Source of the DNA: Polyangiales bacterium
GTDB lineage: Bacteria > Myxococcota_A > Polyangia > Polyangiales > Ga0077539
Assembly: GCA_044229975.1 (NCBI GenBank)
Contig: JBGARZ010000002.1
Coordinates: 672,001-736,000, forward strand
DNA: 64,000 nucleotides
Direction of reading: 5' to 3'
Below are positions 7,172-60,523 of this stretch, piece after piece. The first letter of the stretch is position 1, and each line of letters opens with the position of its first letter. Both the position numbers and the translations under genes were made by a program. The notes under the pieces were generated by a model, which saw nothing but the letters and a program-made list of their open reading frames with translations, did no database searches and was not told the DNA's origin.

Positions 7172-7205
7172 GTCGGTGCACCGCGACCGCTGCCCCTGAG
7201 CGTTG

Positions 7206-24287: not shown

Positions 24288-25063
24288 AGGTCGAGCTCGA
24301 GCGAGACCGGGCAGTGGTCGCTGCCCTTCTGGTCGGGGTGGATCTGCGCGTCCTTCACCTTCGAGACGAAGCCTTCGCTCACGAGGAAGATGTCGATGCG
24401 CCAGCCGACGTTCTTGGCGCGCGCCGCGCCGCGCTGCGACCACCAGGTGTAGAGCGACTTCTCGCCGGGGTGACGGTCGCGGAAGACGTCCCTCATCCCG
24501 GCCGCGAGGTAGCCCTGGAAGTCTTCGCGCTCCTCGTTGGTAAACCCCGGATTGGTGCGGTTGGTCTTCGGGTTGGCGAGGTCGATCTCCTCGGGCGCGA
24601 CGTTCATGTCGCCGACCACCACGACGTTCTCCCCGCGGGCGATGCGGGCCTTCATGTTGGCGGCGAGGTCCTGCGCGAAGGCCCGCTTGTAGGGCATGCG
24701 AACGAGCCCCGTCGACGCGTTGGGGAAGTACCCCGCGATGAACGTGAACCCCATGCCCTCGCTGACGATGAGCCGCCCCTCGACGTCGTACGCCTCCGTA
24801 CCAACCCCCTGGGTGTGCTTGAAGCCGAGGCCCTTGCGGGTGAGCGTGGCCGAGCCCGAGTAGCCCTTCTTCGAGCGCGCCGGAAACCAGCTCACGTCGT
24901 GCTTGCGGGTGAGCTCGTCGCGCGTGGCGAAGTCGAGCTCCTCCCACTCCACGCGAATCTCCTGGAGCGAGAGCACGTCGGGCTTCGTCGCGTCGAACCA
25001 ATCGAGAAACCCCGACTTGAGCGACGAGCGGAAGCCGTTGACGTTCCAACTGACGATCTTCAT
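24284..25063 (-). CDS. xth: Exodeoxyribonuclease III (AP endonuclease)
   Basis: [47 protein letters not shown]. Confidence 0.96.
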
Positions 25064-25095
25064 GGGCGCGGACGATAGCGGTAGGCTGCCGCCCC
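25064..25095. promoter_or_regulatory. Back-to-back putative -10 elements for divergent leaderless transcripts (xth / monooxygenase-reductase)
   Basis: TATCGT on the minus strand (25077-25072) and TAGGCT on the plus strand (25082-25087), each exactly 8 nt from its start codon; no SD. Confidence 0.5.
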
Positions 25096-31719: not shown

Positions 31720-33579
31720 TCAGTTCCAGGGATCGCGCAGGCCGTCGGAGTGGGCGGGCGGGTGCGGAGCGGCGACCGGAGGCTCGGGCGTGGCCGTCGG
31801 CGGTCGCACGCGGGGGTCGGGGTGATCGCCCGCGTGCGGTCGGTGACGTCGCGCCGACTCGTTGAGCGGCACGAGCACCACCGGAGGATCGCCCTCGTGG
31901 AGCTCGACGACGGCGGGATCGTAGCCCTCGACCTCGATGCGGTACGCCTGCGCCGCACCGCGGGGGCGCGGCAACACCAGCGGCTGCGGGTTGATCTCTC
32001 CGACGAGCTCACCGCCCACGCGGCCCCGCATCACCCGGCCGCGCTCGGTGGCGCTCGTGCGAAGCTGGATCGTCACGTTGACGGGGGCCATCGGCGGCAC
32101 CACCGGCACCGTCGGGCCGACCCCAGGCGCCGGCACGACCGGCGGCGGTGTCGTCAGCGGGCGAACGATGGGCGGGACGGTGGATGGATCGTCGGCGGGC
32201 ACTGGTGCGGGACCCACCAACGCATAGCCGCCGACGCCGAGCATGACGCCCGCGCTCACCACGGCGCCCGCGAGCACCCACCCCCAGCGACGACTGGTCG
32301 CGGGCAGCGGCTGCGGGGGCGGAACAACGCTGACCCCAGGCGCCGTGTCGGCGGGCGGGCGCTGCGACGGCGGCCCCATCGTGGGCTGCGACGAGCGATC
32401 GACCGAGCTGGTCGATGCGATGGGGGACGGGCGGATCCATGTTCCGTCGTCGAGGGCCGGGGGGATGGTCTCGGGCCCCGGCCGACGCAGCCTGAACTCC
32501 GCGCGCGTCGCGCCATCGAGTGACTGCAACGCCGGGAGCATTCCGCGGCTGAACTGCGCCGTCGCCTGGTCGGAGTCGTCGAGCGCGCGCGGCACCTCCC
32601 CCGCGCGACACCGTTCAAGGTCTTCGCGCACGTCGTCGAGGGAGTCGTAGCGAGCGTCCTTCGTCTTCGCGAGGCACCGCAGGATGACGGCCTCGAACGC
32701 GGGCGTCATGCGCTCGCACTCGGGGTAGACGCGGGGCGAGACGGGCGTGTGATAGAGGTGCGCCGTCAGGATGCCCATGAGGTTGTCGGCGTCGAAGGGC
32801 ACCTTGCCGGTGGCCATCTCGTACATGAGCACGCCGAGCCCGTAGATGTCCGTCTTGTGATCGATGTTGCGATCGCCCGACGCCTGCTCCGGGGACATGT
32901 AGTGGGGCGTCCCAAACACCGAGCCGGTGCGCGTCTTCTGGGCCTTCGAGTTCTGCACCTTGGCGATGCCGAAATCGAGGATCTTCACGAAGTACGGCTC
33001 GTCGGCCTTCCGCACGATGTGGAAGTTGTCGGGCTTGATGTCGCGGTGCACGACGCCGATGGCGTGCGCGGCGCCGAGGCCCTCGCAGATCTGCGTCGCG
33101 AGGTGGATGGTGAACTCCTCGGACATCGGCTGCCGACGGTCACTGCCCGCGGGCTTGGGCATGCGCGCGAGCACGTCGCCGAGCGATCGCCCCTCCAGGT
33201 ACTCCATCACGAAGAAGCGCGAGTTGTCGGGCAGCGACCCCCAGTCGTAGATCTCGACGATGTGCGGGTTGTTGATCGACGCCGCGGCGCGCGCCTCCTG
33301 CTCGAAGCGCACCACGAGGTCTTCCTCGGCGCTGTACTCCGCGCGCAGCACCTTCACTGCGTAGCGGATGCCGCTCTGGATGTCGCGCGCGCTGTAGACC
33401 ACCCCCATGCCGCCGTCGCCGAGCACGCCGTCGACCGCGTAGCGGTTGAGGATCGTCGTGCCCACCAGCCGCTCGCGCTCGGACGCCACCACCAGGAGGT
33501 CGAGCACCGCGCCGTCGACGTCGCAGATACGCGCGTTCGATTCGAGAAAGCGCTTACCGCATTTGGGACACTGTCGCAT
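31720..33579 (-). CDS. Membrane Ser/Thr protein kinase with N-terminal Cys knuckle and PEGA-like C-terminus
   Basis: MRQCPKCG...CDVDG; LGDGGMGVVY, YAVK, HRDIKPDN, DFG, GTPHYMSPE; TM WGWVLAGAVVSAGVMLGVGGYALV; YRIEVEGYDP. Confidence 0.93.
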   Translation of the reverse strand: MRQCPKCGKRFLESNARICDVDGAVLDLLVVASERERLVGTTILNRYAVDGVLGDGGMGVVYSARDIQSGIRYAVKVLRAEYSAEEDLVVRFEQEARAAASINNPHIVEIYDWGSLPDNSRFFVMEYLEGRSLGDVLARMPKPAGSDRRQPMSEEFTIHLATQICEGLGAAHAIGVVHRDIKPDNFHIVRKADEPYFVKILDFGIAKVQNSKAQKTRTGSVFGTPHYMSPEQASGDRNIDHKTDIYGLGVLMYEMATGKVPFDADNLMGILTAHLYHTPVSPRVYPECERMTPAFEAVILRCLAKTKDARYDSLDDVREDLERCRAGEVPRALDDSDQATAQFSRGMLPALQSLDGATRAEFRLRRPGPETIPPALDDGTWIRPSPIASTSSVDRSSQPTMGPPSQRPPADTAPGVSVVPPPQPLPATSRRWGWVLAGAVVSAGVMLGVGGYALVGPAPVPADDPSTVPPIVRPLTTPPPVVPAPGVGPTVPVVPPMAPVNVTIQLRTSATERGRVMRGRVGGELVGEINPQPLVLPRPRGAAQAYRIEVEGYDPAVVELHEGDPPVVLVPLNESARRHRPHAGDHPDPRVRPPTATPEPPVAAPHPPAHSDGLRDPWN

Positions 33580-33689
33580 CGCCCTCTCGTCGCGCGGTGG
33601 GGACAGTGCCCTCCGGTGCCGCCGACCGTCGGTGACAGGTAGCGCTTTCGCCGCCCCGAAACAAGCGCGCAACGCCGCCAGCGGTCAGC

Positions 33690-44069: not shown

Positions 44070-44126
44070 ATCAGCCGCACGGGGGTTGTGGCCGTCGGTC
44101 GGCGGTCGGTGGTAGGGTTTCCGACC

Positions 44127-46265
44127 GTGACGGCGAACCCCTACCGACCCCGTTCCACGATTCTGCGCGCGCCTGGTGTTGAGCCCGTCGGGGCACCACC
44201 GGTGCCACCCACCCCGCCGCCTCCAGCGTCGACGGGCCCCGCGCGATCGCTCTCGCCCGGTTCCGTGGTGCTTGGCCGCTACACCATCCAGAAGGTCATC
44301 GGCCGCGGCGGTATGGCGACCGTCTACCTCGCAAAAAACCAGGAGACCGAGCGCCTCGTCGCGCTCAAGATCCTCGACCCGGAGATCTCCAGCGACCCGA
44401 GCTACGTCGAGCGCTTCCGCCGCGAGGCCCGCGCCGCGGGACGTATTCGCAGCGACCATGTCGTGGCGATCTACGACCTCGGCACCGACGTCAACGGCAC
44501 CCTCGTCCTGGTGATGGAGTACCTCGAAGGGCAGACGGTTCAGCAGGCGCTGCGCAACGGCCGTCTTCCCATTCCGCGCATCGGCCATCTCGGGCGTCAC
44601 CTCTGTGAGGGCCTCGCGGCGGCCCACGAGTGCGGCGTCATCCACCGCGACCTCAAGCCGGCCAACCTCTTCATCGAGCGCATGCCCGCGGGCGCCGAGA
44701 AGCTGAAGATCCTCGACTTCGGCATCTCCAAGCTGGCTGAGGCGTCATCCCAGGAGCTGACGCGGGCCGGGCAGACCCTCGGCACGCTCGCGTACATGGC
44801 CCCGGAGCAGATTCGCGGAACGGTGAAGGGCAACGACCCCCGCATCGACCTGTACGCCGCGGGCGTGTCGATCTTCCTCATGCTGACGGCGAAGCGGCCC
44901 ATCGACGCCGAAGACACCGTGCAGCTCCTCCAAGCCGTGTTGGAGAAGCCGCCGCTCACGCTCGCGCAAGCATCGGGCGTGGAGTTTCCCCACGCGCTCG
45001 AAGCCTTCGTCGCGCGGGCCCTCCAGAAGGAGTCGGCGCGCCGCTTCCAAAACGCCATCGAGATGCGCGACGCCCTCCTGTCGGCGGTGAGCGCCCCGGT
45101 GTCTCTCGGTAGCGTCGAAGAGGTGCCCGAGGTCTCGTCCACGATCATCTCCGAGGCGCCGCGCTTCGACGGCCCGCTGCCGATGTCAACGCCTTCGGGC
45201 GTGGTCGCGCGGGGCGGTCACGACGTGGCGCCACCAGGCCCGGTGATGCTCCCGTCGTTTGATGACGACGAGGAAGAAGGCAAGACCGTCGTGCGGGCGC
45301 CGCAGTCCGCGCCCAACGAGTCGCCCGCGGTACTCCCCGCGGCCGGTCGTCGCATGGGCATGGCCCCCGACTACGGCGCTCCGCCTCCGGGCCCGTCGCC
45401 CATGCGCGCCGCGACCATTGCCCCGACCGGCCTGTCGGGCAACGGCCCCCCGATGTACGCGCCACCGCCTACCGAATCGACGATGCTCGCCGACCCGGCC
45501 GCATCCAGTCCTTTCGGAGCCTTCAACGGTCCGGGCATGCACCCGCCGATGGGACAGGGAAACCCCGCGATGGGCGCCGCGGTCGGGCCTCCGATGCCCT
45601 CCAACAACCCCTTTGGTCCGCTCGGTGGAGGGTCCCCCTTCGCGCCTCCGCCCTACGTCGCCCCGGCGCCCGCGCCCGCTCCTGCTGCACCCGCCAGGCG
45701 CTCGCCCATGGTCTTCGTGCTCGGTGCCGCAGCCCTCGTCGCGGTCGCGCTCGTGGGTCTCGCGGGCAAGGTCGCGGTCGATAGCCGCGCAGCCAACAAC
45801 GCCGCCGCGCGCATCGAGCGACCGCGCCCCGCCGTTGCGCCAACCCCGACTGCTGCACCGACCGTCGAAGCCGTGGTCCCGGTCGCGCAGCCCATCGTCG
45901 CGCAACCCATCGCGGCGCCTGCACCCATCGCGGAAGCGCAGCCCCTCGCGCCCGCTGCGCCTGTCGCCGCCGCAGCCCCGGCCCCGGAGCCCGCGCCCGA
46001 ACCCGCCGCTGCCCCCCCTGCCCCGACGCCGGCACCGGCTGAGCCCGCTCCCGCGGCTCCCCCCGAGCCGGCGGTCGCGCACACTCGCCATGCGCCGCGA
46101 GCGCCCCGCCCCGCCACGACGGCAGCGGCCGCCCCCGCTGCTGCGCACACCGCCCCGACGCCTCGCGTGGTCCGTCCCACTCCGGCACCTGCGGCGCCGC
46201 CCGCTCCGCGAGCACCGCGCCCTCGACGTGGTGGTCGCGGCGTCATCACCGACCTGCCGTTCTAG
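44127..46265 (+). CDS. Membrane Ser/Thr protein kinase with long Pro/Ala-rich regions
   Basis: IGRGGMATVY, VALK, HRDLKPAN, DFG, GTLAYMAPE; TM MVFVLGAAALVAVALVGLA; ends GVITDLPF. Start placed at GTG 44127 behind a TAGGGT hexamer. Confidence 0.93.
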   Translation: MTANPYRPRSTILRAPGVEPVGAPPVPPTPPPPASTGPARSLSPGSVVLGRYTIQKVIGRGGMATVYLAKNQETERLVALKILDPEISSDPSYVERFRREARAAGRIRSDHVVAIYDLGTDVNGTLVLVMEYLEGQTVQQALRNGRLPIPRIGHLGRHLCEGLAAAHECGVIHRDLKPANLFIERMPAGAEKLKILDFGISKLAEASSQELTRAGQTLGTLAYMAPEQIRGTVKGNDPRIDLYAAGVSIFLMLTAKRPIDAEDTVQLLQAVLEKPPLTLAQASGVEFPHALEAFVARALQKESARRFQNAIEMRDALLSAVSAPVSLGSVEEVPEVSSTIISEAPRFDGPLPMSTPSGVVARGGHDVAPPGPVMLPSFDDDEEEGKTVVRAPQSAPNESPAVLPAAGRRMGMAPDYGAPPPGPSPMRAATIAPTGLSGNGPPMYAPPPTESTMLADPAASSPFGAFNGPGMHPPMGQGNPAMGAAVGPPMPSNNPFGPLGGGSPFAPPPYVAPAPAPAPAAPARRSPMVFVLGAAALVAVALVGLAGKVAVDSRAANNAAARIERPRPAVAPTPTAAPTVEAVVPVAQPIVAQPIAAPAPIAEAQPLAPAAPVAAAAPAPEPAPEPAAAPPAPTPAPAEPAPAAPPEPAVAHTRHAPRAPRPATTAAAAPAAAHTAPTPRVVRPTPAPAAPPAPRAPRPRRGGRGVITDLPF

Positions 46266-47141: not shown

Positions 47142-47200
47142 CCCCGCGGCGCTCTGCCACGGGAGCCCCTCTCTGCCCGACAGGTCACGTCATCCCCACG

Positions 47201-48583
47201 ATGCCCAACGTCACGCCCTCCGTCACTCCTCCTTCGCCCGTCACCAACCTTCTTCAGCGCCTCAACCGAAGCGCCGATCGCCACTCGCGAATCACGGCGG
47301 GCCCGGTGCACGTCGGCTTCCCGGGTGGCGCGGTAGAGACCTACCACCTCGGCAACGGCCTGCGGGTGCTGCTCCAGATCGATCGACGCGCTCCGGTGCT
47401 CTCGTATCAGGTCTGGTTCAACGTCGGTTCGCGCCACGAACGCGAGGGCAAGACGGGCCTCGCACACCTCTTCGAACACCTGATGTTCAACGAGACGAAG
47501 ACCCTGCGGGCCGGTCGCTTCGACGCGTTGATGGAGCGCGCGGGCGCGGAGACCAACGCCGCAACCTGGACGGACTGGACCTACTACCACGAGAACATTC
47601 CCGCCGATCAGCTGCCGCTGGTGGTGCGGCTCGAAGCTGACCGCATGCGCAACCTCGTGCTCCATCCGAAGCTCGTCGCGAGCGAGAAGGAGGTCGTCGC
47701 CAACGAGCGCCGCTTCAGCGTCGTCGACAGCGTCGACGGCATGCTCGCGGAGACGCTCTGGTCGCTCGCGTTCAACACGCACCCGTACCACCACCCGACC
47801 ATCGGTTGGATGAGCGACATCGAGGGCTTCACGCCGGCCGACTGCCGGGCGTTTTACAAGACCTGGTACGCCCCCAACAACGCGACGGTGGTGGTCGTCG
47901 GTGACACCGACCGCGCGCGGGCGCTGCGGCTCATCCAGCGCCACTACGGTGCGATGCGACCGGCGACGATCCCCGACCTGACGATCCCCGACGAGCCCGC
48001 CCAGACCGACGACCGCCTCGCGGTGCTCGAGCTGCCGACGCCCACCGCCAAGGTCGCCATCGGGTTCAAGTGCCCCGCGTTCGCGCACCGCGATCACGCC
48101 GCGCTCTCCGTCCTCGTCGAGGCGCTCACCGGAGGTCGCTCGGCGCGCCTCTTCCAGAGCCTCGTGACCGAACGCGAGATCGCCACCGACGTCTCCGGGT
48201 GGGTCTCGCCGTTTCGCGACCCCGGGCTTCTCGACATCAGCGCCGTCGGACGCGGTGCGGTCACGCCAGAGGCGTTGCGTGAGGCGGTGGAGCTCGGCAT
48301 CGCGTCGGTGGGTGACATCCCCATCACCGAAGACGAGCGCGATCGCGCGATCGCGCGCATGGAGTTCGGCTTCCTTCGCGGCCTGGAGACCGTCGGCGGG
48401 CGCGCCGAGCTCCTCGGCAACAACGCCCTCGTGCTGGGCAACCCTGTCGGGAGCCTCACGCGCGTGGAGACGATGCGCTCCCTCACCGCCGCCGACCTCC
48501 AAGACGTCGCGCGCCGCTACCTGCTGGGCCAGGCCCGCTCGGTGGTCCTGGTGCGCTCCAACCTCGCCGCAGGGGTCGCGTGA
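47201..48583 (+). CDS. M16B zinc peptidase, catalytic subunit
   Basis: LGNGLRV, VGSRHE..GKTGLAHLFEHLMF (HxxEH), NAAT..D.T.Y, EKEVVANER, YAPNNATVVVVGD. Confidence 0.93.
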   Translation: MPNVTPSVTPPSPVTNLLQRLNRSADRHSRITAGPVHVGFPGGAVETYHLGNGLRVLLQIDRRAPVLSYQVWFNVGSRHEREGKTGLAHLFEHLMFNETKTLRAGRFDALMERAGAETNAATWTDWTYYHENIPADQLPLVVRLEADRMRNLVLHPKLVASEKEVVANERRFSVVDSVDGMLAETLWSLAFNTHPYHHPTIGWMSDIEGFTPADCRAFYKTWYAPNNATVVVVGDTDRARALRLIQRHYGAMRPATIPDLTIPDEPAQTDDRLAVLELPTPTAKVAIGFKCPAFAHRDHAALSVLVEALTGGRSARLFQSLVTEREIATDVSGWVSPFRDPGLLDISAVGRGAVTPEALREAVELGIASVGDIPITEDERDRAIARMEFGFLRGLETVGGRAELLGNNALVLGNPVGSLTRVETMRSLTAADLQDVARRYLLGQARSVVLVRSNLAAGVA

Positions 48584-49869
48584 TGCCCCCGACCACCCTG
48601 TACTGCGAGTCCGCCCACGACCTCCCGCTCGTCGACCTGCAGCTCGTCGCACGCACCGGCGCGCAGCACGATCCGGCGGGCAAGGAGGGCGCGCTCAACC
48701 TCGCGCTCCGAACGCTCCGCCGCGGCACCCGCGCCCGCAACTCGCGGGAGATCGACGCGCTCATCGACCGGCTCGGTGGCGAGTTCGGCGCCTCGGCCGA
48801 CGTGAGCTCCGCGACGCTGCACGCCGCGGTCATCCGTCGCAACCTCCCGGCCTTCCTCGACCTGTTCGAGGAGTTCGTCACCGGCGCCACGCTGCCCGAG
48901 GCCGAGGTCGCCCAGGTGCGCCGCGAGATGCAGGCCGACATCGTCGAGAGCCGCGACGACGACCGCACGCTCGCAGGTCGCCACTTCCGCCGCACGCTCT
49001 TCGCGGGCCACCCCTACGGTCGCCCCACGCAGGGCACCGTCGCGGGCCTCGACGCGGTGACGGGTGACGACGCCCTCGCGGCCTTCCGGCGCACCTTCAG
49101 CCGCGACAACGTGTTCTTCGCGGCGGCGGGCGACGTCTCCCTCGCCGAGCTGGCGGCTTTCTCCGATCGCATCAACCCGGGGCTGGCTTCGGGGCCGTCG
49201 CCCACCACGACGATCGAAGCGCCGAAGCCCATCCGCGGTCGCCGCCTCGTGATCGTCGACAAGCCCGAACGGTCACAGACCCAGATCTACATCGGCAACC
49301 TCGGATCGCAGCCGCGCGACCGCGACCAGCTCGCGCTCTTCGTGGGCAACACCATCTTCGGCGGAACCTTCACCGCTCGCCTCATGCGCGAGATCCGCTC
49401 CAAGCGCGGCCTGTCCTACGGTGCCTCGTCGCGGCTCGGTCGCGACCGCGCGCGCAGCAGCTGGTCCATGTCGACCTTCCCTGCCGCCACCGACGCAGCG
49501 CGCTGCATCAGCATCCAGCTGTCGATGTTGGAGGGGCTGTTGGAGAAGGGCGTCACGGCGCGCGAGGTGTCGTCTGCGCGCGCGTTCATCACGCGTGGCT
49601 ACGCGTTCGAGCGCGACACCGCCGCGAAGCGTCTCGGACAGTTGATCGAGATCGACCTCCTCGACCTGCCGAAGTCCTACTTCGACGACTACATCGAGCG
49701 CATCAACGCCGTGACCGTGGACGACGTCAACGCCGCCCTCCGCAAGCGCCTCTCCGCGGACAACCTCCTCGTCACCGTCGTGGCCACCGCGGACACCCTC
49801 CGCGGGCCGCTGGAGAGCTGCATCCCCGGGCTCGTCGACACGCGCGTCGTGCCCTTCGACCGCGACTGA
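48583..49869 (+). CDS. M16B peptidase, non-catalytic partner subunit
   Basis: No HxxEH; HPYGRP, FGG.FT.RLM.EIR.KRGLSYG (R/Y pair); TGATG overlap with the catalytic subunit. Confidence 0.9.
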   Translation: MPPTTLYCESAHDLPLVDLQLVARTGAQHDPAGKEGALNLALRTLRRGTRARNSREIDALIDRLGGEFGASADVSSATLHAAVIRRNLPAFLDLFEEFVTGATLPEAEVAQVRREMQADIVESRDDDRTLAGRHFRRTLFAGHPYGRPTQGTVAGLDAVTGDDALAAFRRTFSRDNVFFAAAGDVSLAELAAFSDRINPGLASGPSPTTTIEAPKPIRGRRLVIVDKPERSQTQIYIGNLGSQPRDRDQLALFVGNTIFGGTFTARLMREIRSKRGLSYGASSRLGRDRARSSWSMSTFPAATDAARCISIQLSMLEGLLEKGVTAREVSSARAFITRGYAFERDTAAKRLGQLIEIDLLDLPKSYFDDYIERINAVTVDDVNAALRKRLSADNLLVTVVATADTLRGPLESCIPGLVDTRVVPFDRD

Positions 49870-49890: not shown

Positions 49891-51456
49891 GTGGACGAAC
49901 TCCCCTCGGGCACCCTCTACGCCGGACGCTACGCCGTCGTCCGCCTCCTCGGACGCGGCTCGGTGAAGCAGGTCTACCTGGCCTACGACCGGCTCACGCA
50001 GACCCAGGTCGCCCTCGCGCGCCTCGCCGAGCGCCACGGCAGCGACGCCACCGTCGGCGCGAGGTTCTCGCGGGAGGCGCGCGCCGCTGCGGCACTGACC
50101 TCACCGTTCACGGTGCGGGTATTCGACGCGGGCAAGACCGCCGACGGTGAGCGCTACCTCGTGAGCGAGGCCGTGTTGGGTCGCGGCCTCGACGACGCCG
50201 TCGCGGCCGGACCGCTGCCCCCGCGCTTCGCCGCGACGTGGACCATCGAGGTGTTGAGCGCGCTCGCCGAGGCGCACGCGAAGGGGCTCGTGCACCGAGA
50301 CGTGAAGCCGGAAAACGTGATGCTCGCGCCGAGCGACGGCGACGCGATCGGCGAGGTCGCGCGGCTGACGGACTTCGGCCTCGCGAAGGTGCTCGACGAG
50401 CGGATGGAGGGCTCGGTGGTCGTCCGCACCGCCGCCGGCGTCGCGATGGGAACGCCCGACTACATGTCCCCCGAGCAGTGGTCGGGCGGCGCCGTCGACC
50501 TGCGCTCCGACCTCTACTCGGTGGGCGTGATGCTCTACGAGATGCTCCTCGGGCGGGTGCCCTTCGAGGGGCCCTCCCTCATGGCGCTGGCCGCGGCTCA
50601 TCACGTCGCGGAGGTCCCTGCCTTCCCCGACGACGCCCCGCCCGCGGTGCGCGCCCTCGAATCCGTCGTTCGACGAGCGCTGGCCAAGCGCACCGACGCG
50701 CGTTGGGCCTCCGCCGACGCGATGCGCGTTGCCATCGAGGCTGCAGCGGGTGTGCGCCTCCCGACGCCGCCCACGGTGCGGGCGCTCATCCCCGATGACG
50801 AGGTGCTCGACGACGTCGCCCACGTCGAGCTGATGAGCGACGCGGGCATCGGCCCCATCCAGGTGCTCGCAACACCGCGCTTGTTCCTGGGACGAACGGG
50901 GCACGTCGTGGCGCGCTGCCTTCCGCAGTCTGAAGACAACGACCGCCGCTCGCGATCGGTCTCTCGTCGCCACGCGCGCATCGAGTGGCGCGGCGGCCAC
51001 GCCTCTCTCGCCGACGCCCGCAGCGCGTCGGGCACCTCCCTCAACGGCCGCGCCGTGCTGCCCGATCGCGACCCGATCCGCCTCGAACACGGCGACGAGA
51101 TCGGCCTCGGCCCCCACGTCCGCTTCCTGTTCGAGCACGCCCGCGCGCCTGCTGGAGAGCTTCCGTCGTGGGCCCGCCTGACGCGCCTCGACCGCCACGG
51201 CGAAGGCATCGTGCACGTGCTGGTGCTCATCGAAGCGATCGTCTCCACATCGCCCGACGCCGCCGTCGTCGCGCCGACGAGCGCCCGCGACGCGACGCTG
51301 ATCCTTCGCGCGCGCAACGGTCGCATGGTGGCGTTGCGCGACGAGTCCGAGATGCCCGTCGAGCTCTTCGACGGCCAGCGCTGGCGCCTCGGCGACACGA
51401 CGTGGACCGTCGCCGTGCACGACCGCCGCGGCAGCTTCCCGACCCCCGATCGCTGA
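49891..51456 (+). CDS. Cytoplasmic Ser/Thr kinase with C-terminal FHA domain; atypical WNK-like Lys placement
   Basis: LGRGSVKQVY, VALARL (no beta3 Lys), FSREA, HRDVKPEN, DFG, GTPDYMSPE; FHA LGR...VSRRHA...SASGTSLNG; no TM seen. Confidence 0.9.
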   Translation: MDELPSGTLYAGRYAVVRLLGRGSVKQVYLAYDRLTQTQVALARLAERHGSDATVGARFSREARAAAALTSPFTVRVFDAGKTADGERYLVSEAVLGRGLDDAVAAGPLPPRFAATWTIEVLSALAEAHAKGLVHRDVKPENVMLAPSDGDAIGEVARLTDFGLAKVLDERMEGSVVVRTAAGVAMGTPDYMSPEQWSGGAVDLRSDLYSVGVMLYEMLLGRVPFEGPSLMALAAAHHVAEVPAFPDDAPPAVRALESVVRRALAKRTDARWASADAMRVAIEAAAGVRLPTPPTVRALIPDDEVLDDVAHVELMSDAGIGPIQVLATPRLFLGRTGHVVARCLPQSEDNDRRSRSVSRRHARIEWRGGHASLADARSASGTSLNGRAVLPDRDPIRLEHGDEIGLGPHVRFLFEHARAPAGELPSWARLTRLDRHGEGIVHVLVLIEAIVSTSPDAAVVAPTSARDATLILRARNGRMVALRDESEMPVELFDGQRWRLGDTTWTVAVHDRRGSFPTPDR

Positions 51457-53472: not shown

Positions 53473-54015
53473 CTAGCGGTTGTACTCGGGGGCGTACTGC
53501 CCGGTGGCGGGATCGATTCCGACCGCGCGCAGGCCGTCGTCGAGGGAGCGCGGAGTTGCGTCGGCGGCGACGGGGGCAGGCGTGCGGTTCCAGACGGTGA
53601 CCAGGGTGCGGTCGCCCTCGTCACGCACGCCAACGTCGACGACGAAGTTCGATTGCACGTTGCGGACGATGCCACGGTGGATCAGCGCCGCGAGCGGATG
53701 GATGTCCGCATCGCGCATCTCCAGGCGCTGCTCCAGATAGCGCATCACGCGCGGCATCGGCGCCTCGACCCTGAACGTCTTCATGCTGTCGGTGGCGAGG
53801 TGCTCCCGAGACACGGTCGGCATCGCGAGCCCGAACGCGCTCAGACTCCCAGGGAGCAGATCGTCGTTGGAGGGAGGAGCGTCGTCGAGCGACTGCTCCT
53901 GTACCACCGCAGCCGCAACAGGCGCCGCGGAGGCGGAGGGCGTGGCTCGTGGCCGACGGTGGCAGGCCACCACCGCCGACAACAAGAGGAGAATGCTACC
54001 GAGCCGGGTGCCCAT
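53473..54015 (-). CDS. Lipoprotein of unknown function coupled to pilY1
   Basis: MGTRLGSILLLLSAVVAC lipobox; TGATG overlap with the pilY1 stop. Confidence 0.75.
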   Translation of the reverse strand: MGTRLGSILLLLSAVVACHRRPRATPSASAAPVAAAVVQEQSLDDAPPSNDDLLPGSLSAFGLAMPTVSREHLATDSMKTFRVEAPMPRVMRYLEQRLEMRDADIHPLAALIHRGIVRNVQSNFVVDVGVRDEGDRTLVTVWNRTPAPVAADATPRSLDDGLRAVGIDPATGQYAPEYNR

Positions 54016-57000
54016 CACTCAAAGACAGCGGCGACCGAGTCGATGCGCGAGGGGATGATCGGCGAGGGCAACGAGCGGGAGAACACAGCGGTGGTCGTCC
54101 CGCCCACCATCCCGGTCTGCGCGATCTGCAACACGAGGCGGTACTCGCCGCCCGTGGTGGAGCTCACGAAGGTGCGAGGCGAACCGGTGATCGGGTCGAT
54201 CACATCGGCGCTCACGTTGCAGTTCGGGCGGCGGGCGACCGCGACGCCGAAGAGCAGGCTGTTGGCGTCGTCGAGGTCGCTGCCGTTGTTGTTGAGGTCA
54301 CGCGTGACCCGCACGACGTCCGCCGTGGTCATCGGGTCGCCATCGCGATCGAGACGGCCCTGCGGGTACGTCGAGCCCGTTGGATCGTTGCGGCTCAGGT
54401 CAACACCCCAGAGGCGGGCCGCGCCCATCTGGCAAGGATCGGTGCCCGTCTGCGGCGCAAAGGTGCCGAAGTAGAGGACGTTGTTGAAGAGCGTCATGGA
54501 GCCCGTCAGGCGCTCGCCGGCGAGGAGATCGCGGTCCGTGGTCTGCGACCCCGGGCGAATACCCCAGTTCTCCTCGATGTTGATCGCGACCGAGGTGCCC
54601 GCGGCGTCCGTGGTCGTCGACTCCATGATGGACTCGATCCGGTTCTCCTGGGTGCCCGAGAGGTCTTCGGTGTCGCCCGATCCGAATGCGATGATCGTGC
54701 GGCCGAGGTCATCGATGCTGGTCACCGGGCGCTCGATGATGGGCTGACCGCTCTGATAGCCCCGATCCCAGAAGAGATCGAACTCGGTCGCCATCCACCA
54801 CTGGGCGGGGTTGGGGTTGGTCAGGTCGACACGCCAGAGCATGCCGTCCGCGTCGCCGACGTAGGCGCGCGTGGTGACGACACCAGCGAGGCCGTTGTAG
54901 AGGGCCGGCGCACCAACGATGGGGGAATGCGTTGGCGTGGGGCTCGTCGTCGTCGGCATCGCGGGGTCGTAGGGGACGGCCGACGGAGCAGCGCCGATCT
55001 TCCGGATCAGCTCACCCGTCTGGAGGTTGACCACGTAGAAGAACCGACCGTGGTTGCTGTTCCAGCAGCGGACGAAGGGACGCTGCGCGCCGCGACCACC
55101 GGACCAACCTGTCATGAGACCATTGGGCCGGGTGCTGCTCGGTGCCGAGGTCGGGGAGCAGCTCGCGGCCTGCTCACCGGTGCCGCCCGGAATGAACGCG
55201 ACCGCTCGCTCCACCGAGGGCCCGCCGTTCGGCGAATAGAACACCGTACCGATCGCCGGCGTGCCCGACGAGACGGTCAGGTCGGGGTCGGTGAACTGCC
55301 ACAGGAAGCGAGGGTTGTAGGGGTCCGTCACGTCCATGCCGATGTACGCGCCGCCGCCACCGCGGAGTCCCACCACGAGCACGGTGCGCCAGCTGCTGTC
55401 GTCCTGCAGTGAGCCCGTCGAGCGCTCGTAGTAGATCTCCTTGACCACCGGCGAGCCGTCGACACCCAGGGTACGGGTTGTCGGGTACCCGCTGCGAAGG
55501 TTGGGCACGAGGTACGGAGGGACAAACCCCCACACTTCCTCGCCCGAGTCCGTGTTGAAGGCGTGGAGCACGCCGTCGTTGCTGCCGACGTAGACAATGG
55601 GCTCACGCGTTCCGACGGTCACCGCGGTGCGACGACGGCCAGTGAGCGGCAACGTTCGCTGGCGAAAGGCGAGGAAGGTCTGGTCGGGGAGATTGATACG
55701 CGGCGCCGAGACATAGGTCGGCGTCGAGCGGAAGATGTCACCGAGCGGACGATCCTGCCGGATGGTGCCGACATCGCCACGAAGCCAGGCGAGCAGGTCA
55801 GAGACCTCCGTCGTCGTGGTGTAGTTGAACAGCGCCGGCGACATGGAGGGCGAGAGTTCGACCGCGGTACCCGCACCGGCCGTCAAGCCGTTGATCATCG
55901 TTTGGCGGAGGTCCGCAGAAGTGGTGGCGGTCGTGGGCACGAAGGTCCACAGGTAGCGACCACCCCAGCCACGGCTGTCGCGAATCGGGCGACGGAGATT
56001 GTAGGCAAAGTCATCGCCCGCAGCCTGATCCGGCGCCACTGGGGTCGGCACCGGAGGAGCACCCGACGACGGAGCCTGACAGACCGTTCGCGTGCGCGTG
56101 AGCAACCCGGACCACGGACGCCCGGGCGTCACGTTGAAGGCTGCATTGAACTGGTACTGGGAAGTTCCGCTTGCGGCCGTCGTGCCTGCCTCGCCAAACA
56201 CCGGCGGCGTGCGCGTCGAGGTCTGCGAGGTGATGGTATCGATGATGGCCGAGAGTGCGGCCGAGAACGTCGGCCGGTCGTTGGCGTAGTAGACGCGCGT
56301 CGTGTTGCCCGCCATCGCGATGGGCTCAAGCGCGCTGACCGCGTCGGGATCGCTGGCGTTGAACGCGAGCACGTAGGTCTTCACGTTGGGGGCACCGCCG
56401 CCTGCCATCGCCATTGCAAAGGCGGTCGCCGCAGGCTCCAGATACGGGCAGGTGCCACCCACGCACGCCGGGCGGAAGTCTGTCGGCGCGCCATCCGTGA
56501 TGAGGATGTTCGCGCGGGTTCGGCAGTTGAAGTAGGGGTCACCCGCGCCGCCGGACGAGCCGTCGGTGACGTCGGTGTTGTTACGCCAGTAATAAAGGGC
56601 GTCTTCCAACATGCCGGCGATGGGAGTGGCCCCGAACGGGCGCACACCAGGCATCTCCGTGACCATCGTCATCGGGTTGGCCACGCGACCCGCGAGGCTC
56701 TCCTGCACCTGGCGGTTGATGAGCGCGAGGGCCGCCGTGTCCGCGCTGGCTGGACCAACCGAGATGAGGCCGCCCGGCACCACATCGGCGACGTTGCCGT
56801 CCGTCGAGGCGCGCTTCGCTCCGACGTTGACCGTCAGCGGGGTCGTGCACATCGGCGGGCTGAAGATGCGGTCGCCGTTCGAGCCCGGACCCGTGGGGTA
56901 CGAGAACATCCCGTCGTTGGCGAGAGTGCCCGTGCGGTTGTCGTTGTCGAAGGTCATCAACCCGAAGCGCACGCGGTCGGCGTACACGTCGAGGATGCCG

Positions 57001-57440
57001 TCGTTCGCCTGGCGCGCGGCAGGGTCGTGCAGCGGCACGTTATGGGACAAGGGCTGGTGGTGCGAATACGCGTAAAGGTAATCGTAGTTGAAGTTGGCGG
57101 TGGTGCGCGCCGACTCCACACACGAGAATGCCTCGATGGTGCCAGTGAGCACCTCCAACGCAGTCGTCCAGCGGTTGCGCTGCTCGTCCGCGGGACATGC
57201 CGATGAGCACATCGACGCGCCGTTCGAGCACACGTTGCAGACGCCGCCCGACGCTCCCCGGCACAGGTTGTTGGGGACGTTGGTCCTGAACTCCATCGAG
57301 CCCGACGTGTCGTCGAGCACCATGATGTTCGGTCGAATCAACCGCACATCTGCGGGCTGAGCGCCCGCGATACGCGGGGCTGAAAGCCAGCCCAACACCA
57401 TGATGGAGAGGGCTCCGAGTCGCTTGCGGTTCAGTTGCAT
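54015..57440 (-). CDS. pilY1: Type IV pilus tip adhesin PilY1/PilC
   Basis: Signal peptide; vWA MIDAS-like PNIMVLDDTSGSM, ATPIAG.L.DA, ILITDG; C-terminal propeller LGDIFRSTP, YVGSNDGVLHAF, GVDGSP, AYVGD.DG.LWRVDL; Ca-loop-like DRDGD and DLNNNG. Confidence 0.9.
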   Translation of the reverse strand: MQLNRKRLGALSIMVLGWLSAPRIAGAQPADVRLIRPNIMVLDDTSGSMEFRTNVPNNLCRGASGGVCNVCSNGASMCSSACPADEQRNRWTTALEVLTGTIEAFSCVESARTTANFNYDYLYAYSHHQPLSHNVPLHDPAARQANDGILDVYADRVRFGLMTFDNDNRTGTLANDGMFSYPTGPGSNGDRIFSPPMCTTPLTVNVGAKRASTDGNVADVVPGGLISVGPASADTAALALINRQVQESLAGRVANPMTMVTEMPGVRPFGATPIAGMLEDALYYWRNNTDVTDGSSGGAGDPYFNCRTRANILITDGAPTDFRPACVGGTCPYLEPAATAFAMAMAGGGAPNVKTYVLAFNASDPDAVSALEPIAMAGNTTRVYYANDRPTFSAALSAIIDTITSQTSTRTPPVFGEAGTTAASGTSQYQFNAAFNVTPGRPWSGLLTRTRTVCQAPSSGAPPVPTPVAPDQAAGDDFAYNLRRPIRDSRGWGGRYLWTFVPTTATTSADLRQTMINGLTAGAGTAVELSPSMSPALFNYTTTTEVSDLLAWLRGDVGTIRQDRPLGDIFRSTPTYVSAPRINLPDQTFLAFRQRTLPLTGRRRTAVTVGTREPIVYVGSNDGVLHAFNTDSGEEVWGFVPPYLVPNLRSGYPTTRTLGVDGSPVVKEIYYERSTGSLQDDSSWRTVLVVGLRGGGGAYIGMDVTDPYNPRFLWQFTDPDLTVSSGTPAIGTVFYSPNGGPSVERAVAFIPGGTGEQAASCSPTSAPSSTRPNGLMTGWSGGRGAQRPFVRCWNSNHGRFFYVVNLQTGELIRKIGAAPSAVPYDPAMPTTTSPTPTHSPIVGAPALYNGLAGVVTTRAYVGDADGMLWRVDLTNPNPAQWWMATEFDLFWDRGYQSGQPIIERPVTSIDDLGRTIIAFGSGDTEDLSGTQENRIESIMESTTTDAAGTSVAINIEENWGIRPGSQTTDRDLLAGERLTGSMTLFNNVLYFGTFAPQTGTDPCQMGAARLWGVDLSRNDPTGSTYPQGRLDRDGDPMTTADVVRVTRDLNNNGSDLDDANSLLFGVAVARRPNCNVSADVIDPITGSPRTFVSSTTGGEYRLVLQIAQTGMVGGTTTAVFSRSLPSPIIPSRIDSVAAVFE

Positions 57441-58105
57441 GGAATCACCGTGATGGCGCGGAGCGATTCCGTCCCGCGCGCGATGTTGGTGGGGTCAGTG
57501 CCGTAAAGGCTGGAAGCAAGTTCGGTCGTACCTTCGGACTCGACCAGGAGACGCACCGGGAGCACCGTGAGGCTCGGATCGCTCACATCGGTTCCCCGCT
57601 GAGGCGATGTGTCAGCACCAAGTTCGGTGACGCGGACCTGGAAGCGCGGCGTGAGACCGCCCGCGCCGAACGACCCCGCGGTGCGAGAAATGCCCGTACC
57701 CGTGGCGTCGGTGAACACCCTCTGAGGCGTCGTGATCACGTCGAAGTCGCCCAGGTAGAAGGTGTAGCAGGGAGGCGTGATGGGCCCGCGCGACGTCGTG
57801 ATGGTCGGACACCCCGGGATCCCCCCGGTCGTCAGCGCACGCACCCGGAGGTTGGAGCTGAAGTACGCGGCGCAGGCGGTGCGCAACCGGGTCATCACCG
57901 CCGACGCGCCGGCCTCAGCGACGTAGTGGGTCTGCGCCGACTGCCGGACGTAGCCCGACGAACGAATCTCGAGGGCCGACGAGCGCGTCACGAAGACCCC
58001 CGCAGCGCTCACCATCATGAGGAGCATCATCACGACAAACATCGCGACGCCGCGCTGTCCGCGCCGTGTCCTGTGCCGCCTCTTGCTGGTCGCTACACGT
58101 GTCAT
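57431..58105 (-). CDS. pilX: Minor pilin PilX-like
   Basis: Class III signal QRG|VAMFVVMMLL lacking Glu+5 (a PilX hallmark); AEAG; AGGAGG just upstream of ATG 58105 (alternative start 58120). Confidence 0.8.
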   Translation of the reverse strand: MTRVATSKRRHRTRRGQRGVAMFVVMMLLMMVSAAGVFVTRSSALEIRSSGYVRQSAQTHYVAEAGASAVMTRLRTACAAYFSSNLRVRALTTGGIPGCPTITTSRGPITPPCYTFYLGDFDVITTPQRVFTDATGTGISRTAGSFGAGGLTPRFQVRVTELGADTSPQRGTDVSDPSLTVLPVRLLVESEGTTELASSLYGTDPTNIARGTESLRAITVIPCN

Positions 58106-58125
58106 CGTCCTCCTGGGCATTCCGT

Positions 58126-59340
58126 TCAACGAAGGTTGCGAATCGCGAGATTGGGCACCGCGATCTCGGTGACGAGCGAGCGCACACGGGCTGCGCCGAT
58201 GCGGTTGTTGAACACGCGGAAGCGCGTCAGAGCCGACGTGGCGCCGCGAGGAACCCAACCAAACCCAGGCTCCTGATCGCGGTCGCGGATCGACAGCCGC
58301 ACGATGACCGACCGGATCTGCTGCGGGCGCGCGGTGGTCCCGCCGCTCGCCACCGAACCAGCCAAGGTCGTGATGGCGCTATCACCGAAGGCGAGCGTGC
58401 GCATCGAGGGTTGGGCCACGATGGTGTTGGCCGGATTGCCGAGGTCGTAGGCAATCGAGGCATCGAAGTCGACCGCGTACTCGCCGACGAGACGGGCCGC
58501 CGAGGTGATCTCGGTCGGGCTCGGGCGCAGGTCGTACTCGCGACGAATGAGGTCCGTCTTCGCCGCCCGTACGACCAGGTCGGTTGGGTAGAGTTCGCCG
58601 AGCCGCGACGCCAGGCTGCCGATCTCGTACTCGACCATCATCATCGGGGCGACGGTCGCGCCAACGCCGAGGCCCGCGAGACCGCAACCCGCCCCCGCGG
58701 AGCTCGCGCTCGCCCCCGCCCCCTGCACGAGCGGGCTCGACGCCAGGAGCAGCGACGAGAGGCCCGTGGAGTTGGAAGCCACCCAGGTACCGCCCATCGA
58801 GACCGCGAACTGCATCTGCCCGGTGGTGCTCATGATGCGCAGGAGGCGAGGCGACATCGCCGTGCCGAAGATGCGATCGAACTCGACCTGGCTTTGGATG
58901 CGCGTCCACTGCGGTGACTGGTTTTGCAGCGCGAGCGTTGAGCCCGACACGCCAGCGACGGTGTACTCGTCGGCAGAGGCGTAGTTGCCGGTCAGACGCA
59001 TCACGATGGGATTGATGTGCGCGTTGTCCGCAGGCAGCAGCGTGGGGTTGGGGCTGGAGCGCGCGATCTCGATGCCCTGATACCCCGTCGTCGGACGAGG
59101 GCAGACCCTCGGGTCAAGCACGCTGTTGGGCGTACCCATATAACCCGCGCGAGAGACGTCGGCGCGAATCTGCTCCATCGCAAAGCGCAGTCGGAGCTGC
59201 ATCTCCGCAGTGCGCTGCTGCTGATTGAAGGTCTCCGTGGCCGAGCTCGACACCGCGTACAGCGCCGACACGACGATGGACGTGAGGAGGATCGCGATGA
59301 GCAGCTCGACGAGCGTATAGCCGGGGTTCGAGCGCCTCAT
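58126..59340 (-). CDS. pilW: Minor pilin PilW-like
   Basis: NPG|YTLVELLIAILL with Glu+5; LRFAMEQIRADVSRAGY; IRSVIVRL near the C-terminus. Confidence 0.85.
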   Translation of the reverse strand: MRRSNPGYTLVELLIAILLTSIVVSALYAVSSSATETFNQQQRTAEMQLRLRFAMEQIRADVSRAGYMGTPNSVLDPRVCPRPTTGYQGIEIARSSPNPTLLPADNAHINPIVMRLTGNYASADEYTVAGVSGSTLALQNQSPQWTRIQSQVEFDRIFGTAMSPRLLRIMSTTGQMQFAVSMGGTWVASNSTGLSSLLLASSPLVQGAGASASSAGAGCGLAGLGVGATVAPMMMVEYEIGSLASRLGELYPTDLVVRAAKTDLIRREYDLRPSPTEITSAARLVGEYAVDFDASIAYDLGNPANTIVAQPSMRTLAFGDSAITTLAGSVASGGTTARPQQIRSVIVRLSIRDRDQEPGFGWVPRGATSALTRFRVFNNRIGAARVRSLVTEIAVPNLAIRNLR

Positions 59341-59933
59341 GAGTCATGCCTCTGGAGGGTCTGGCTCACGTAGATCGAGCGGATGTTGGTCGTGTCGGTG
59401 CTCACCGTGGAGGTCGCCGAGCGCGCGCAGTCGGAGTAGGCCGCCGGCCGAATTCCTCCCTGACGGAACCACCAGACCCGCACCTCAGCGCGGATGAGCT
59501 GGTTGGGGATGAGCGCCGTCAGCCGGACGTGCGTGCAGTAGTACGCGCGGAAGTCGGTGGTCGCGATGTCGTTGCCGAAGTAGTCGAACGCCGCGGTCTC
59601 GGTCAGCGCCGCAACGCTCGATGCGGGCGAGTCGGGGACATACCAATCGGTCGTCACCGTGCCGCCCAGCCGGGACAGGTACCAGGTGCCCGAGATGTTG
59701 CTCACCGGGTTGGTCTGCGAGGGCTGGGTCCACTGGTAGGAGTCGCGACGCAGACGATCCTGCCAGCGACGCGCGAGATTGGTCGCCATGGTGACCTCCT
59801 GGGCGCGCTGGTTCGCCCCCACGGCGGCGGTCTGCATCCCGACGATGCCGAGGATGCCCGTGGCGAGCACGCCCATCGCGGCGAGGACCTCGACCATCGT
59901 GTACCCGGCTTGCGATCGACGAGAGCGGCTCAT
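59337..59933 (-). CDS. pilV: Minor pilin PilV-like
   Basis: QAG|YTMVEVLAAMGVLATGILGIVGMQ; AEVRVWW; ATGA overlaps on both sides. Confidence 0.85.
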   Translation of the reverse strand: MSRSRRSQAGYTMVEVLAAMGVLATGILGIVGMQTAAVGANQRAQEVTMATNLARRWQDRLRRDSYQWTQPSQTNPVSNISGTWYLSRLGGTVTTDWYVPDSPASSVAALTETAAFDYFGNDIATTDFRAYYCTHVRLTALIPNQLIRAEVRVWWFRQGGIRPAAYSDCARSATSTVSTDTTNIRSIYVSQTLQRHDS

Positions 59934-60523
59934 GTGCGCATCCTCGGCATTCCCCCGAGGGGGATCAGGATGCGACGCGTCGCACCACCGGTCGTCTGGA
60001 ACACGTTGATCTGGAAGACGCCACCCGTGCCAAGAACGCTGCTGTCGTTGCTCCACGCCTGGCTCGTCGTGATGATCGGGTTGGTCGAGAAGAACGCTGC
60101 GCCCAGCGGCGTGTAGCAGATCTGAAGGTAGGTGGTGCCTGAGGGCACCGAAATGGTCGCCCCGAGGTTGTCGCGAGAAAAGCGCGCTTCGCTGAGGTCG
60201 AGGTTGGCGACCCGCTGCATCGGATCGAGCACGCCCGTCCCGAAGTTGGACAACCGGCACGAAGGCGACGACCCCTCGTAGGCATCGAGCCGGAGGGCGG
60301 CTCCAGCCTGCGACACGATGAGCGTCTGCGCCCGCCCGCGGTACATCGCCCTCGTGCGCACCTCACGAGCGACGTCGAGCACCGTCGTCGCCGCCTGCTG
60401 GATGCGGCGCTCACGAGACGCCTGACCCATGCCGGGCAGCGCGAGCGCCGTCACCACCCCGATGATGACGACGACGATCATCAACTCGAGGAGGGAGAAC
60501 CCGGCCTGTCGTGAGGTTGCCAT
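59930..60523 (-). CDS. fimU: Minor pilin FimU/FimT-like
   Basis: QAG|FSLLELMIVVVIIGVVTALALP; AR..A helix; ends RRILIPLGGMPRM. Confidence 0.8.
   Translation of the reverse strand: MATSRQAGFSLLELMIVVVIIGVVTALALPGMGQASRERRIQQAATTVLDVAREVRTRAMYRGRAQTLIVSQAGAALRLDAYEGSSPSCRLSNFGTGVLDPMQRVANLDLSEARFSRDNLGATISVPSGTTYLQICYTPLGAAFFSTNPIITTSQAWSNDSSVLGTGGVFQINVFQTTGGATRRILIPLGGMPRMRT

Follow-up and report, generated by a model that had tools for sequence, protein, structure and literature searches.

The subject of this analysis is a gene at positions 49891..51456 (forward strand) of a 64,000-nucleotide stretch of the genome of a Polyangiales bacterium (contig JBGARZ010000002.1; this whole stretch is referred to as the window). 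Its product of 521 amino acids is a Ser/Thr protein kinase with the lysine arrangement of the eukaryotic WNK (With No Lysine) kinases: the canonical lysine of strand beta3 is missing, and a lysine is found in the glycine-rich loop instead. Judged from sequence comparison and modelling, this protein is probably (about three chances in four) an active, cytoplasmic, FHA-coupled Ser/Thr kinase, in which Lys26 replaces the missing beta3 lysine. According to the open reading frame (ORF) list, Pfam and an AlphaFold2 model, the kinase domain is followed by an FHA domain and a C-terminal beta-rich domain. An earlier reading made from the DNA letters only (the sequence-only reading) had let the gene end at position 50760, which was wrong; the ORF continues to 51456, and this adds the FHA and the beta-rich domain.

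The Gly-rich loop (GRGSVK, 49951..49968, +) reads LGRGSVKQVY in its longer form, and Lys26 (AAG, 49966-49968) occupies the position of the third glycine at the start of the predicted strand beta2; in the model, DSSP assigned a strand to residues 26-33 (E26-33), of which Lys26 is the first. The beta3 motif reads VALARL, with Ala43 (GCG, 50017..50019, +) at the position of the canonical VAxK lysine, as aligned to the VAVK motif of StkP. Both motifs had been described in the sequence-only reading, as had FSREA, HRDVKPEN, DFG and SPE, and all of them were recovered in the sequence. In register with the solved structure of StkP, Lys26 stands opposite the Ala of GRGGMA and Ala43 opposite the Lys of VAVK. 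WNK3 shows GRGAFKTVY and VAWCEL at the matching positions, and the lysine of its GRGAFK motif falls into the same column as Lys26. The four other kinases encoded in the window carry VAVK (7200-8861, +), MALK (22869-25133, -), YAVK (31723-33684, -) and VALK (44070-46262, +) at beta3, and their residue at the third glycine of the loop is Gly or Ala, which also agrees with the earlier description. Among the 228 kinase domains of the genome, 207 possess the beta3 lysine and Lys26 occurs in the window kinase only. Thirteen other domains lack the beta3 lysine, and 12 of these, as candidate pseudokinases, have lost other catalytic residues too; in the domain at G000 C29:117481-118812 the beta3 lysine is exchanged for Arg and the remaining catalytic residues are intact.

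The homologue search yielded 59 family proteins (query included), mostly of kinase-FHA architecture and down to about 46% identity, followed by a sharp drop to sequences matching the kinase domain alone. The source labels of the homologues name Polyangiales, Myxococcaceae and Deltaproteobacteria metagenome bins. Lys26 was present in 54 of the 55 homologues with a residue at this position, and lysine was present at the beta3 position in none of 56 (Ala 35, Cys 10, Ser 6, Gly 4, Val 1). Beyond the family, the 61 matches that followed showed the reverse (beta3 lysine 61/61; Lys26 0/61). The coupling between a Gly-loop lysine and the loss of the VAxK lysine, which the sequence-only reading had suggested looking for among homologues, is hence fixed throughout the family. 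The sole protein without Lys26 (P0033) starts a few residues before the loop and has EREA there; this matches another reading frame of the orthologous loop (QREA, frame 3, in loci L101/L102) and points to a local frameshift in that record. In the genomic orthologues from other genomes, Lys26 was found in 26 of 26 cases (22 AAG, 4 AAA) and position 43 was non-Lys in all 26, encoded by six different codons.

The gene was found once in 27 of the 31 genomes of its myxobacterial family (19 of the 20 high-quality genomes) and in all 10 genera, a distribution like that of a near-core, single-copy signalling gene of this one family. It was not found outside this family in a survey of a 401-genome sample of the phylum, in which three candidates were scored per genome, and a motif scan of the same 401 genomes agrees. 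A pattern search of named genome contigs was dominated by canonical kinases and returned 1 family member in 80 loci.

The mutual exclusion of the two lysines extends beyond this family. A comparison set of 1060 kinase domains, which was enriched for Lys26 by design, contained 1045 domains with a residue at both positions: 112 with Lys26 only, 907 with the beta3 lysine only and 26 with neither. No intermediate with both lysines was found among these 1045 domains, that is, a lysine at the third Gly-loop position occurred in 0 of the 907 domains retaining the beta3 lysine. A motif scan, whose pattern fixed the Gly loop only and left beta3 free, matched 12 of the 401 phylum genomes (3 from the own family, 9 others) and at least 122 metagenome stretches. 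Among the matches listed, there were 115 kinases with a Gly-loop lysine; 110 of them extend to beta3, and lysine was absent from that position in every case (Ala 93, Ser 9, Asn 5, Gly 3). A search with an N-lobe profile against 1.84 billion representatives, the ranking of which favours multi-domain proteins, gave 325 domains, and only four of these possessed Lys26, all of them family members. Both these 325 domains and 255 domains from a long-protein search are part of the 1045 in which an intermediate was sought.

The 112 domains with Lys26 only fall into four clades; beside the kinase-FHA family, the Gly-loop-Lys matches sort into clade B, clade C and DLG-bearing WNK-type kinases of eukaryotes. 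Clade B, a large bacterial clade (L113-L122 and L124-L244, among the matches listed), combines a zinc ribbon, the kinase domain and AAA_16, and has GEGGKK-type loops and no beta3 lysine. A WNK-type domain scores on clade B with a median of 75 and a maximum of 90 bits, the highest of the bacterial groups tested (canonical median 40-50), and a Gly before the Asp of DFG or DLG is common to clade B and WNK. Clade C (L130, L133, L167, L176, L182, L185, L186 and shorter matches) shows a GGGMK loop, CALA at beta3, a YRD catalytic loop and a Met gatekeeper, with a C-terminal zinc ribbon in L133. The eukaryotic WNK-type metagenome kinases (L149, L155, L184, L203, L236) carry Asn, not Cys, at beta3; for L149, 15 of 15 PDB matches were WNK1/3. 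Clades B and C share the swap and intact catalytic residues with the kinase-FHA family, and clade B also shares the Ser/Thr gatekeeper; in contrast, they form separate, fully supported clades, their architectures are different, and their identity to the query does not exceed 44% for B and 35% for C.

Apart from the swap, the catalytic machinery is fully kept. The alphaC helix carries the RF motif (Arg58-Phe59; RF in 60/61) and Glu62 (60/60) at 50062..50076 (+), and the catalytic loop HRDVKPEN is located at 50293..50316 (+), with His135, Arg136, Asp137, Lys139 and Asn142 each found in 57 of 57 members. The DFG motif (50371..50379, +) has Phe and not the Leu of WNK (DFG 60/61; DLG 0/61); one homologue (P0127) has DCG. 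The activation segment ending in SPE (50413..50475, +) contains the putative phospho-acceptors Ser175, Thr180 and Thr188, with a column conservation of 0.98, 0.96 and 1.0, respectively, in 53 aligned members. The set of Glu62, Asp137, Asn142 and Asp161 was complete in 60/60 family members, and likewise in 44/44 domains of clade B, 7/7 of clade C and 2/2 WNKs. As a control, of the 29 domains with neither the beta3 lysine nor Lys26, only 9 kept all four residues (1 of 13 for those of this genome). The gatekeeper Ser92 (50164..50166, +) is small, and Ser or Thr occurs there in 51 of 61 family members, as against 27 of 914 canonical kinases; together with the small beta3 residue, this would result in an enlarged back pocket.

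The lysine in beta2 is required for the activity of WNK1 and POMK (PMC10211241; PMC1821047; here and below, statements from the literature refer to the accessible parts of the sources), and in POMK shifting the lysine back to beta3 raises the activity (PMC10211241). This precedent, in conjunction with the invariant catalytic residues, suggests that the kinase is active and uses Lys26. The sequence-only reading had suggested an active kinase from two compensating changes and an intact catalytic loop; since these changes are coupled and family-wide and the machinery is kept, a WNK-like active kinase appears to be the best reading of the sequences. By analogy to WNK1 and POMK, Lys26, at the beginning of beta2, would extend into the space vacated by Ala43, where it would grip adenosine triphosphate (ATP) by its alpha and beta phosphates and pair with Glu62. 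Asp137 would act as the base, and Asn142 and Asp161 as magnesium ligands. As in bacterial kinases of the RD type, phosphorylation of the activation loop (Thr180, Ser175), read by Arg136 and Arg58, might turn the kinase on, and the FHA domain might dock a phosphothreonine on the kinase itself or on a partner.

The architecture of the protein fits a soluble signalling kinase. The Pfam scan of the 521-residue protein gave Pkinase at residues 14-229 (E 7e-37) and FHA at residues 354-407 (E 5e-12, above the cut-off), and the AlphaFold2 model of the full protein reached a mean predicted local distance difference test score (pLDDT) of 86 and a predicted template modelling score (pTM) of 0.82. No clear membrane helix was predicted; the peak 19-residue hydropathy of 1.78 falls within predicted strands. 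The kinase domain (residues 12-286; 49924..50748, +) shows a PknB-type fold, with PknB of M. tuberculosis as the best match (Z 34.1; root mean square deviation 1.6 A over 259 residues). These fold searches with the full model did not list WNK, a result that carries no excluding weight, and they probed the kinase domain only. A search of the ESM Atlas returned generic kinase clusters only. The FHA domain (PF00498; about residues 310-416; 50818..51138, +) contains the GR (Gly334, Arg335) and SxxH (Ser358, His361) motifs, each of these residues being present in 53 of 53 members. For the C-terminal beta-rich domain (about residues 427-509; 51169..51417, +), no Pfam family was found and the full model shows confident strands. 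It is possibly a degenerate second FHA-like unit; the match of its profile to FHA (hhalign) was weak, with a probability of 21% over 16 columns, and this part folded alone from the single sequence reached a pLDDT of only 33.

Several observations weigh against the proposed active kinase with a swap of its own. The invariant catalytic residues would also fit a protein that binds ATP and turns over very slowly. The counts for the coupling of both positions reflect at most four independent events. The alphaC RF motif, a Gly-loop Met and a gatekeeper Met are hallmarks of bacterial Ser/Thr kinases (bioRxiv 10.1101/2025.01.12.632604), and both Met residues are largely absent from the family (Gly-loop Met 4/61; gatekeeper Met 0/61), compared to 722 and 752 of 914 canonical kinases. 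In the FHA domain, the Asn of SxNGT is usually conserved; its position is occupied by Ser (27) or Thr (21) in 48 of 53 members, so that phosphothreonine binding may be altered. No gene in the neighbourhood is universal, and the neighbouring genes vary between genera. Finally, the approximately unbiased (AU) test rejected none of the shared origins that were imposed on the trees: for the family with clade B, p was 0.53 and 0.60 after a quick search and 0.25 after a careful one; for all four clades together, it was 0.40; and for the family with WNK, it was 0.69 in a quick search, a weak test because the tree contained no canonical eukaryotic kinase and just two WNK rows, both long-branched. In the quick-search tests the held trees outscored the free tree, and the careful search reversed this sign for the family with clade B.

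For the origin of the swap, similarity and tree topology were considered. Seven columns around the two trait positions were left out of all trees; domains with fewer than 200 of 274 columns were excluded from the large tree, and a 48-row tree was built without WNK and clade C and also without two divergent rows of clade B and the long random rows. The family formed one fully supported clade in every tree. In the free trees, it stood apart from clades B and C and from WNK, beside canonical kinases, with weakly supported deep branches (support 82; 34/87). The query scored up to 210 bits on canonical bacterial kinases, 158 on clade B and 55 on WNK, and the closest PDB sequences to its kinase domain were StkP (155 bits) and PknB (145 bits). 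PknB and StkP are also closest in fold, and the RF motif, the RD catalytic loop and GTxxYMxPEQ are common to them and the family. The family differs from them in the absence of the beta3 lysine, the Gly-loop Met and the gatekeeper Met, in the lysine at the third Gly, and in the absence of a membrane helix and of PASTA domains (NF033483 score 246, cut-off 450 bits). By its sequence, the domain is therefore a variant of the bacterial PknB-type kinases and not a member of the WNK family. The origin is very probably not from WNK. Similarity and the free trees favour the swap as an event of the family itself among bacterial kinases, although only by a little over even odds.

Since other bacterial clades carry the swap, which the sequence-only reading had not noted, the family may instead descend, together with clade B, from a bacterial ancestor that already possessed it, and may have gained the FHA domain later. 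This is a serious competitor of somewhat less than even probability. It was not rejected in the three AU tests mentioned above, and the median identity of 38.7% between both groups (trait columns removed) equals that of the closest 5% of the canonical kinases of the genome. Both groups prefer Ser or Thr as gatekeeper (51/61 and 30/44) and often have a basic residue after the lysine, and clade B occurs in 9 genomes outside the window family in the 401-genome sample of the phylum. On the other hand, four of four free trees separate the two clades, the careful one with an advantage of 13.5 log-likelihood units for the free tree over the joined one. Only two other rare residues (Ala157, Asp169) are shared, and the RF motif is present in 60/61 family members but in 1/44 domains of clade B. 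In addition, the best scores of the query fall on canonical kinases and not on clade B, and Lys26 was found in none of the 255 domains of the best long relatives that the long-protein search returned.

A different objection concerns activity. The protein might be an ATP-binding pseudokinase, or a nearly silent FHA scaffold or switch, in which Lys26 aids nucleotide binding and the active shape and phosphotransfer is negligible. The canonical beta3 lysine is missing, by which pseudokinases are defined at the sequence level (PMC12599244), the 207 domains with this lysine in the genome could supply the activity, and a long stem branch leads to the family, in which 13 private residues are fixed, several of them around the hinge. 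Nevertheless, this explanation is unlikely: Asp137, Lys139, Asn142, Asp161 and Glu62 are invariant, unlike in 20 of the 29 other domains without a beta3 lysine, the Ser/Thr residues in the activation loop are retained, as is the P+1 Thr, and in WNK and POMK this layout supports catalysis. The described bacterial pseudokinase families ActPs1-3, GLW, CP1, DYD and DLHK lack the beta3 lysine in some or all members as well. According to their descriptions, on which this comparison is based, they have Arg or bulky residues at beta3 and have mostly lost the Asp of HRD or DFG; in contrast, both Asp residues are kept in the kinase-FHA family and its beta3 residue is small, and no Gly-loop lysine is mentioned in the accessible descriptions of those families.

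The sequence-only reading had left it open whether the kinase shares the chloride or osmotic sensing of WNK. In such a sensor, an anion in the cavity formed by the lost beta3 lysine and a small gatekeeper would block autophosphorylation. A small beta3 residue combined with a small gatekeeper is indeed found here as in WNK3, and in WNK1 the relocated lysine frees room for chloride (PMC13686953; PMC7606576). However, chloride binds at Leu369-Gly370-Leu371 of WNK1, where the exchange L369F raises autophosphorylation and relieves the inhibition by chloride, and the double mutant L369F/L371F is insensitive to chloride (PMC7606576). With Phe at the position of Leu369 in 60 of 61 members and DLG in none, the family corresponds to this insensitive state, which disfavours WNK-type sensing, and no gene for ion transport was present among the neighbours identified. 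The kinase is probably not a chloride sensor, and a WNK-like sensor appears quite improbable.

Even less probable is a common descent of the relocated lysine in the family and in the eukaryotic WNKs by gene transfer in either direction. WNK (WNK1 Lys233/Cys250; WNK3, PDB 5o2c) shares with the family the lysine at the third Gly, the small beta3 residue (10 of 56 members have Cys there, like WNK), the alphaC Glu, HRD, the magnesium ligands and the Thr-type gatekeeper, and the tree in which both were held together was 10.8 units above that of a short free search. In contrast, the family has DFG and HRDVKPEN where WNK has DLG and HRDLKCDN, and it possesses the bacterial RF motif and the kinase-FHA architecture. 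The kinase domain shares 24-25% identity and 55-58 bits with WNK-type domains, the lowest values of all groups compared, and WNK was absent from its 60 best PDB sequences. WNK itself scores 107-112 bits on the eukaryotic kinases MEKK2, PAK and ASK1 (STE kinases, which follow as its nearest PDB relatives) and no more than 58 on the family. The tree in question contained only two long-branched WNKs of odd composition; a scan of viral contigs for eukaryotic-type kinases that could anchor WNK yielded none. The independent arrival at the WNK arrangement, which the sequence-only reading had proposed, is backed by similarity (55 bits to WNK, 155 to StkP), but a shared origin was not rejected in the tree test (p-AU 0.69). 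A private mutation, an assembly error or a rescue by Arg44, feared at the outset and suggested by the 39-contig assembly and by the homologue P0033, has next to no probability, as all 26 orthologues share the swap with varied codons, P0033 looks frameshifted, and Arg44, present in only 9 of 56 homologues (Leu in 41), cannot be a general substitute for the beta3 lysine. Sequencing error and substitution by Arg44 were both rejected on these grounds.

WNK was regarded as the only functional eukaryotic-type protein kinase family without Lys72, the beta3 lysine, by Kannan et al. in 2007 (PMC1821047). A kinase atlas with seven bacterial pseudokinase families (bioRxiv 10.1101/2025.01.12.632604) and a review from 2025 (PMC12599244) cite WNK, in their accessible parts, as a eukaryotic example only, and the accessible text of a WNK review from 2026 (PMC13686953) does not contain 'bacteria' or 'prokaryot'. 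In the main texts of the literature searched, as far as accessible, no bacterial Hanks-type kinase with a Gly-loop lysine is described. Independent cases in which the positive charge has moved from beta3 to the Gly loop or beta2 are POMK (SgK196) and CAK-chloro (PMC10211241; PMC1821047). POMK is a sugar kinase with MCD and DLD motifs and without the alphaC Glu, and CAK-chloro, from a family of small-molecule kinases, has Arg55/Met72 and Phe in place of Glu91 (PMC1821047); the kinase-FHA family, in contrast to both, keeps the other protein-kinase motifs.

As a tentative generalization, held with less than even confidence, the WNK layout may be a working design that was invented repeatedly, with the kinase-FHA family as one of three separate bacterial inventions, all of them with DFG. 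If so, two of the three have acquired a small gatekeeper convergently with WNK, and the lysine move would be a prior state that WNK used later, not an adaptation to chloride sensing. A sizeable set of bacterial 'pseudokinases' would then be active enzymes with an enlarged back pocket. The odd position of the lysine in WNK is usually explained by the chloride site; with its DFG motif, the family separates both traits and offers a natural test of what the lysine move does alone. Rules based on sequence would misfile such proteins as pseudokinases, so that a likely working enzyme is called dead. As a small, soluble, single-copy protein, the kinase of these uncultured myxobacteria lends itself well to a swap-back experiment of the kind performed on POMK.

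In the window, the kinase gene directly follows an M16 peptidase pair (47177-49869, +) with a gap of 21 bases and faces a gene for a GMC oxidoreductase. The first M16 protein has an HxxEH zinc motif and the second apparently lacks it. Across the loci of 26 relatives, some of which end at contig ends, the M16 pair was found upstream of the kinase in 6, all of the own genus. Downstream on the facing strand, a PilY1 gene (by Pfam) together with a small unknown gene was present in 13 of the 26 loci. In the window this region covers 53473-60260 (-), with the small gene at 53473-54018, PilY1 at 54015-57440 and pilin-like genes upstream of PilY1, the latter labelled from their N-terminal sequences alone.

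A HEAT-repeat gene was located upstream on the same strand in 12 of the 26 loci, and a gene for a protein of 497 amino acids in 11. These two form an uncharacterised pair in several genera (e.g. L088:8679-11966), which consists of a HEAT-repeat protein of 596 amino acids and a 497-residue protein with a vWA-like lead. In the genome studied here, both genes are on other contigs, apart from the kinase gene (G000:C32:792625-794397 and G000:C23:524414-525853). The HEAT-repeat and vWA-like proteins might, on this slender basis, be considered the first candidate partners. A trace in a run only guessed to be RNA (a contig of 164 bases, 147 of them matching) gives no evidence on expression. In one genus, all four loci (L092, L093, L094, L103) have a gene for a fatty-acid desaturase facing that of the kinase.

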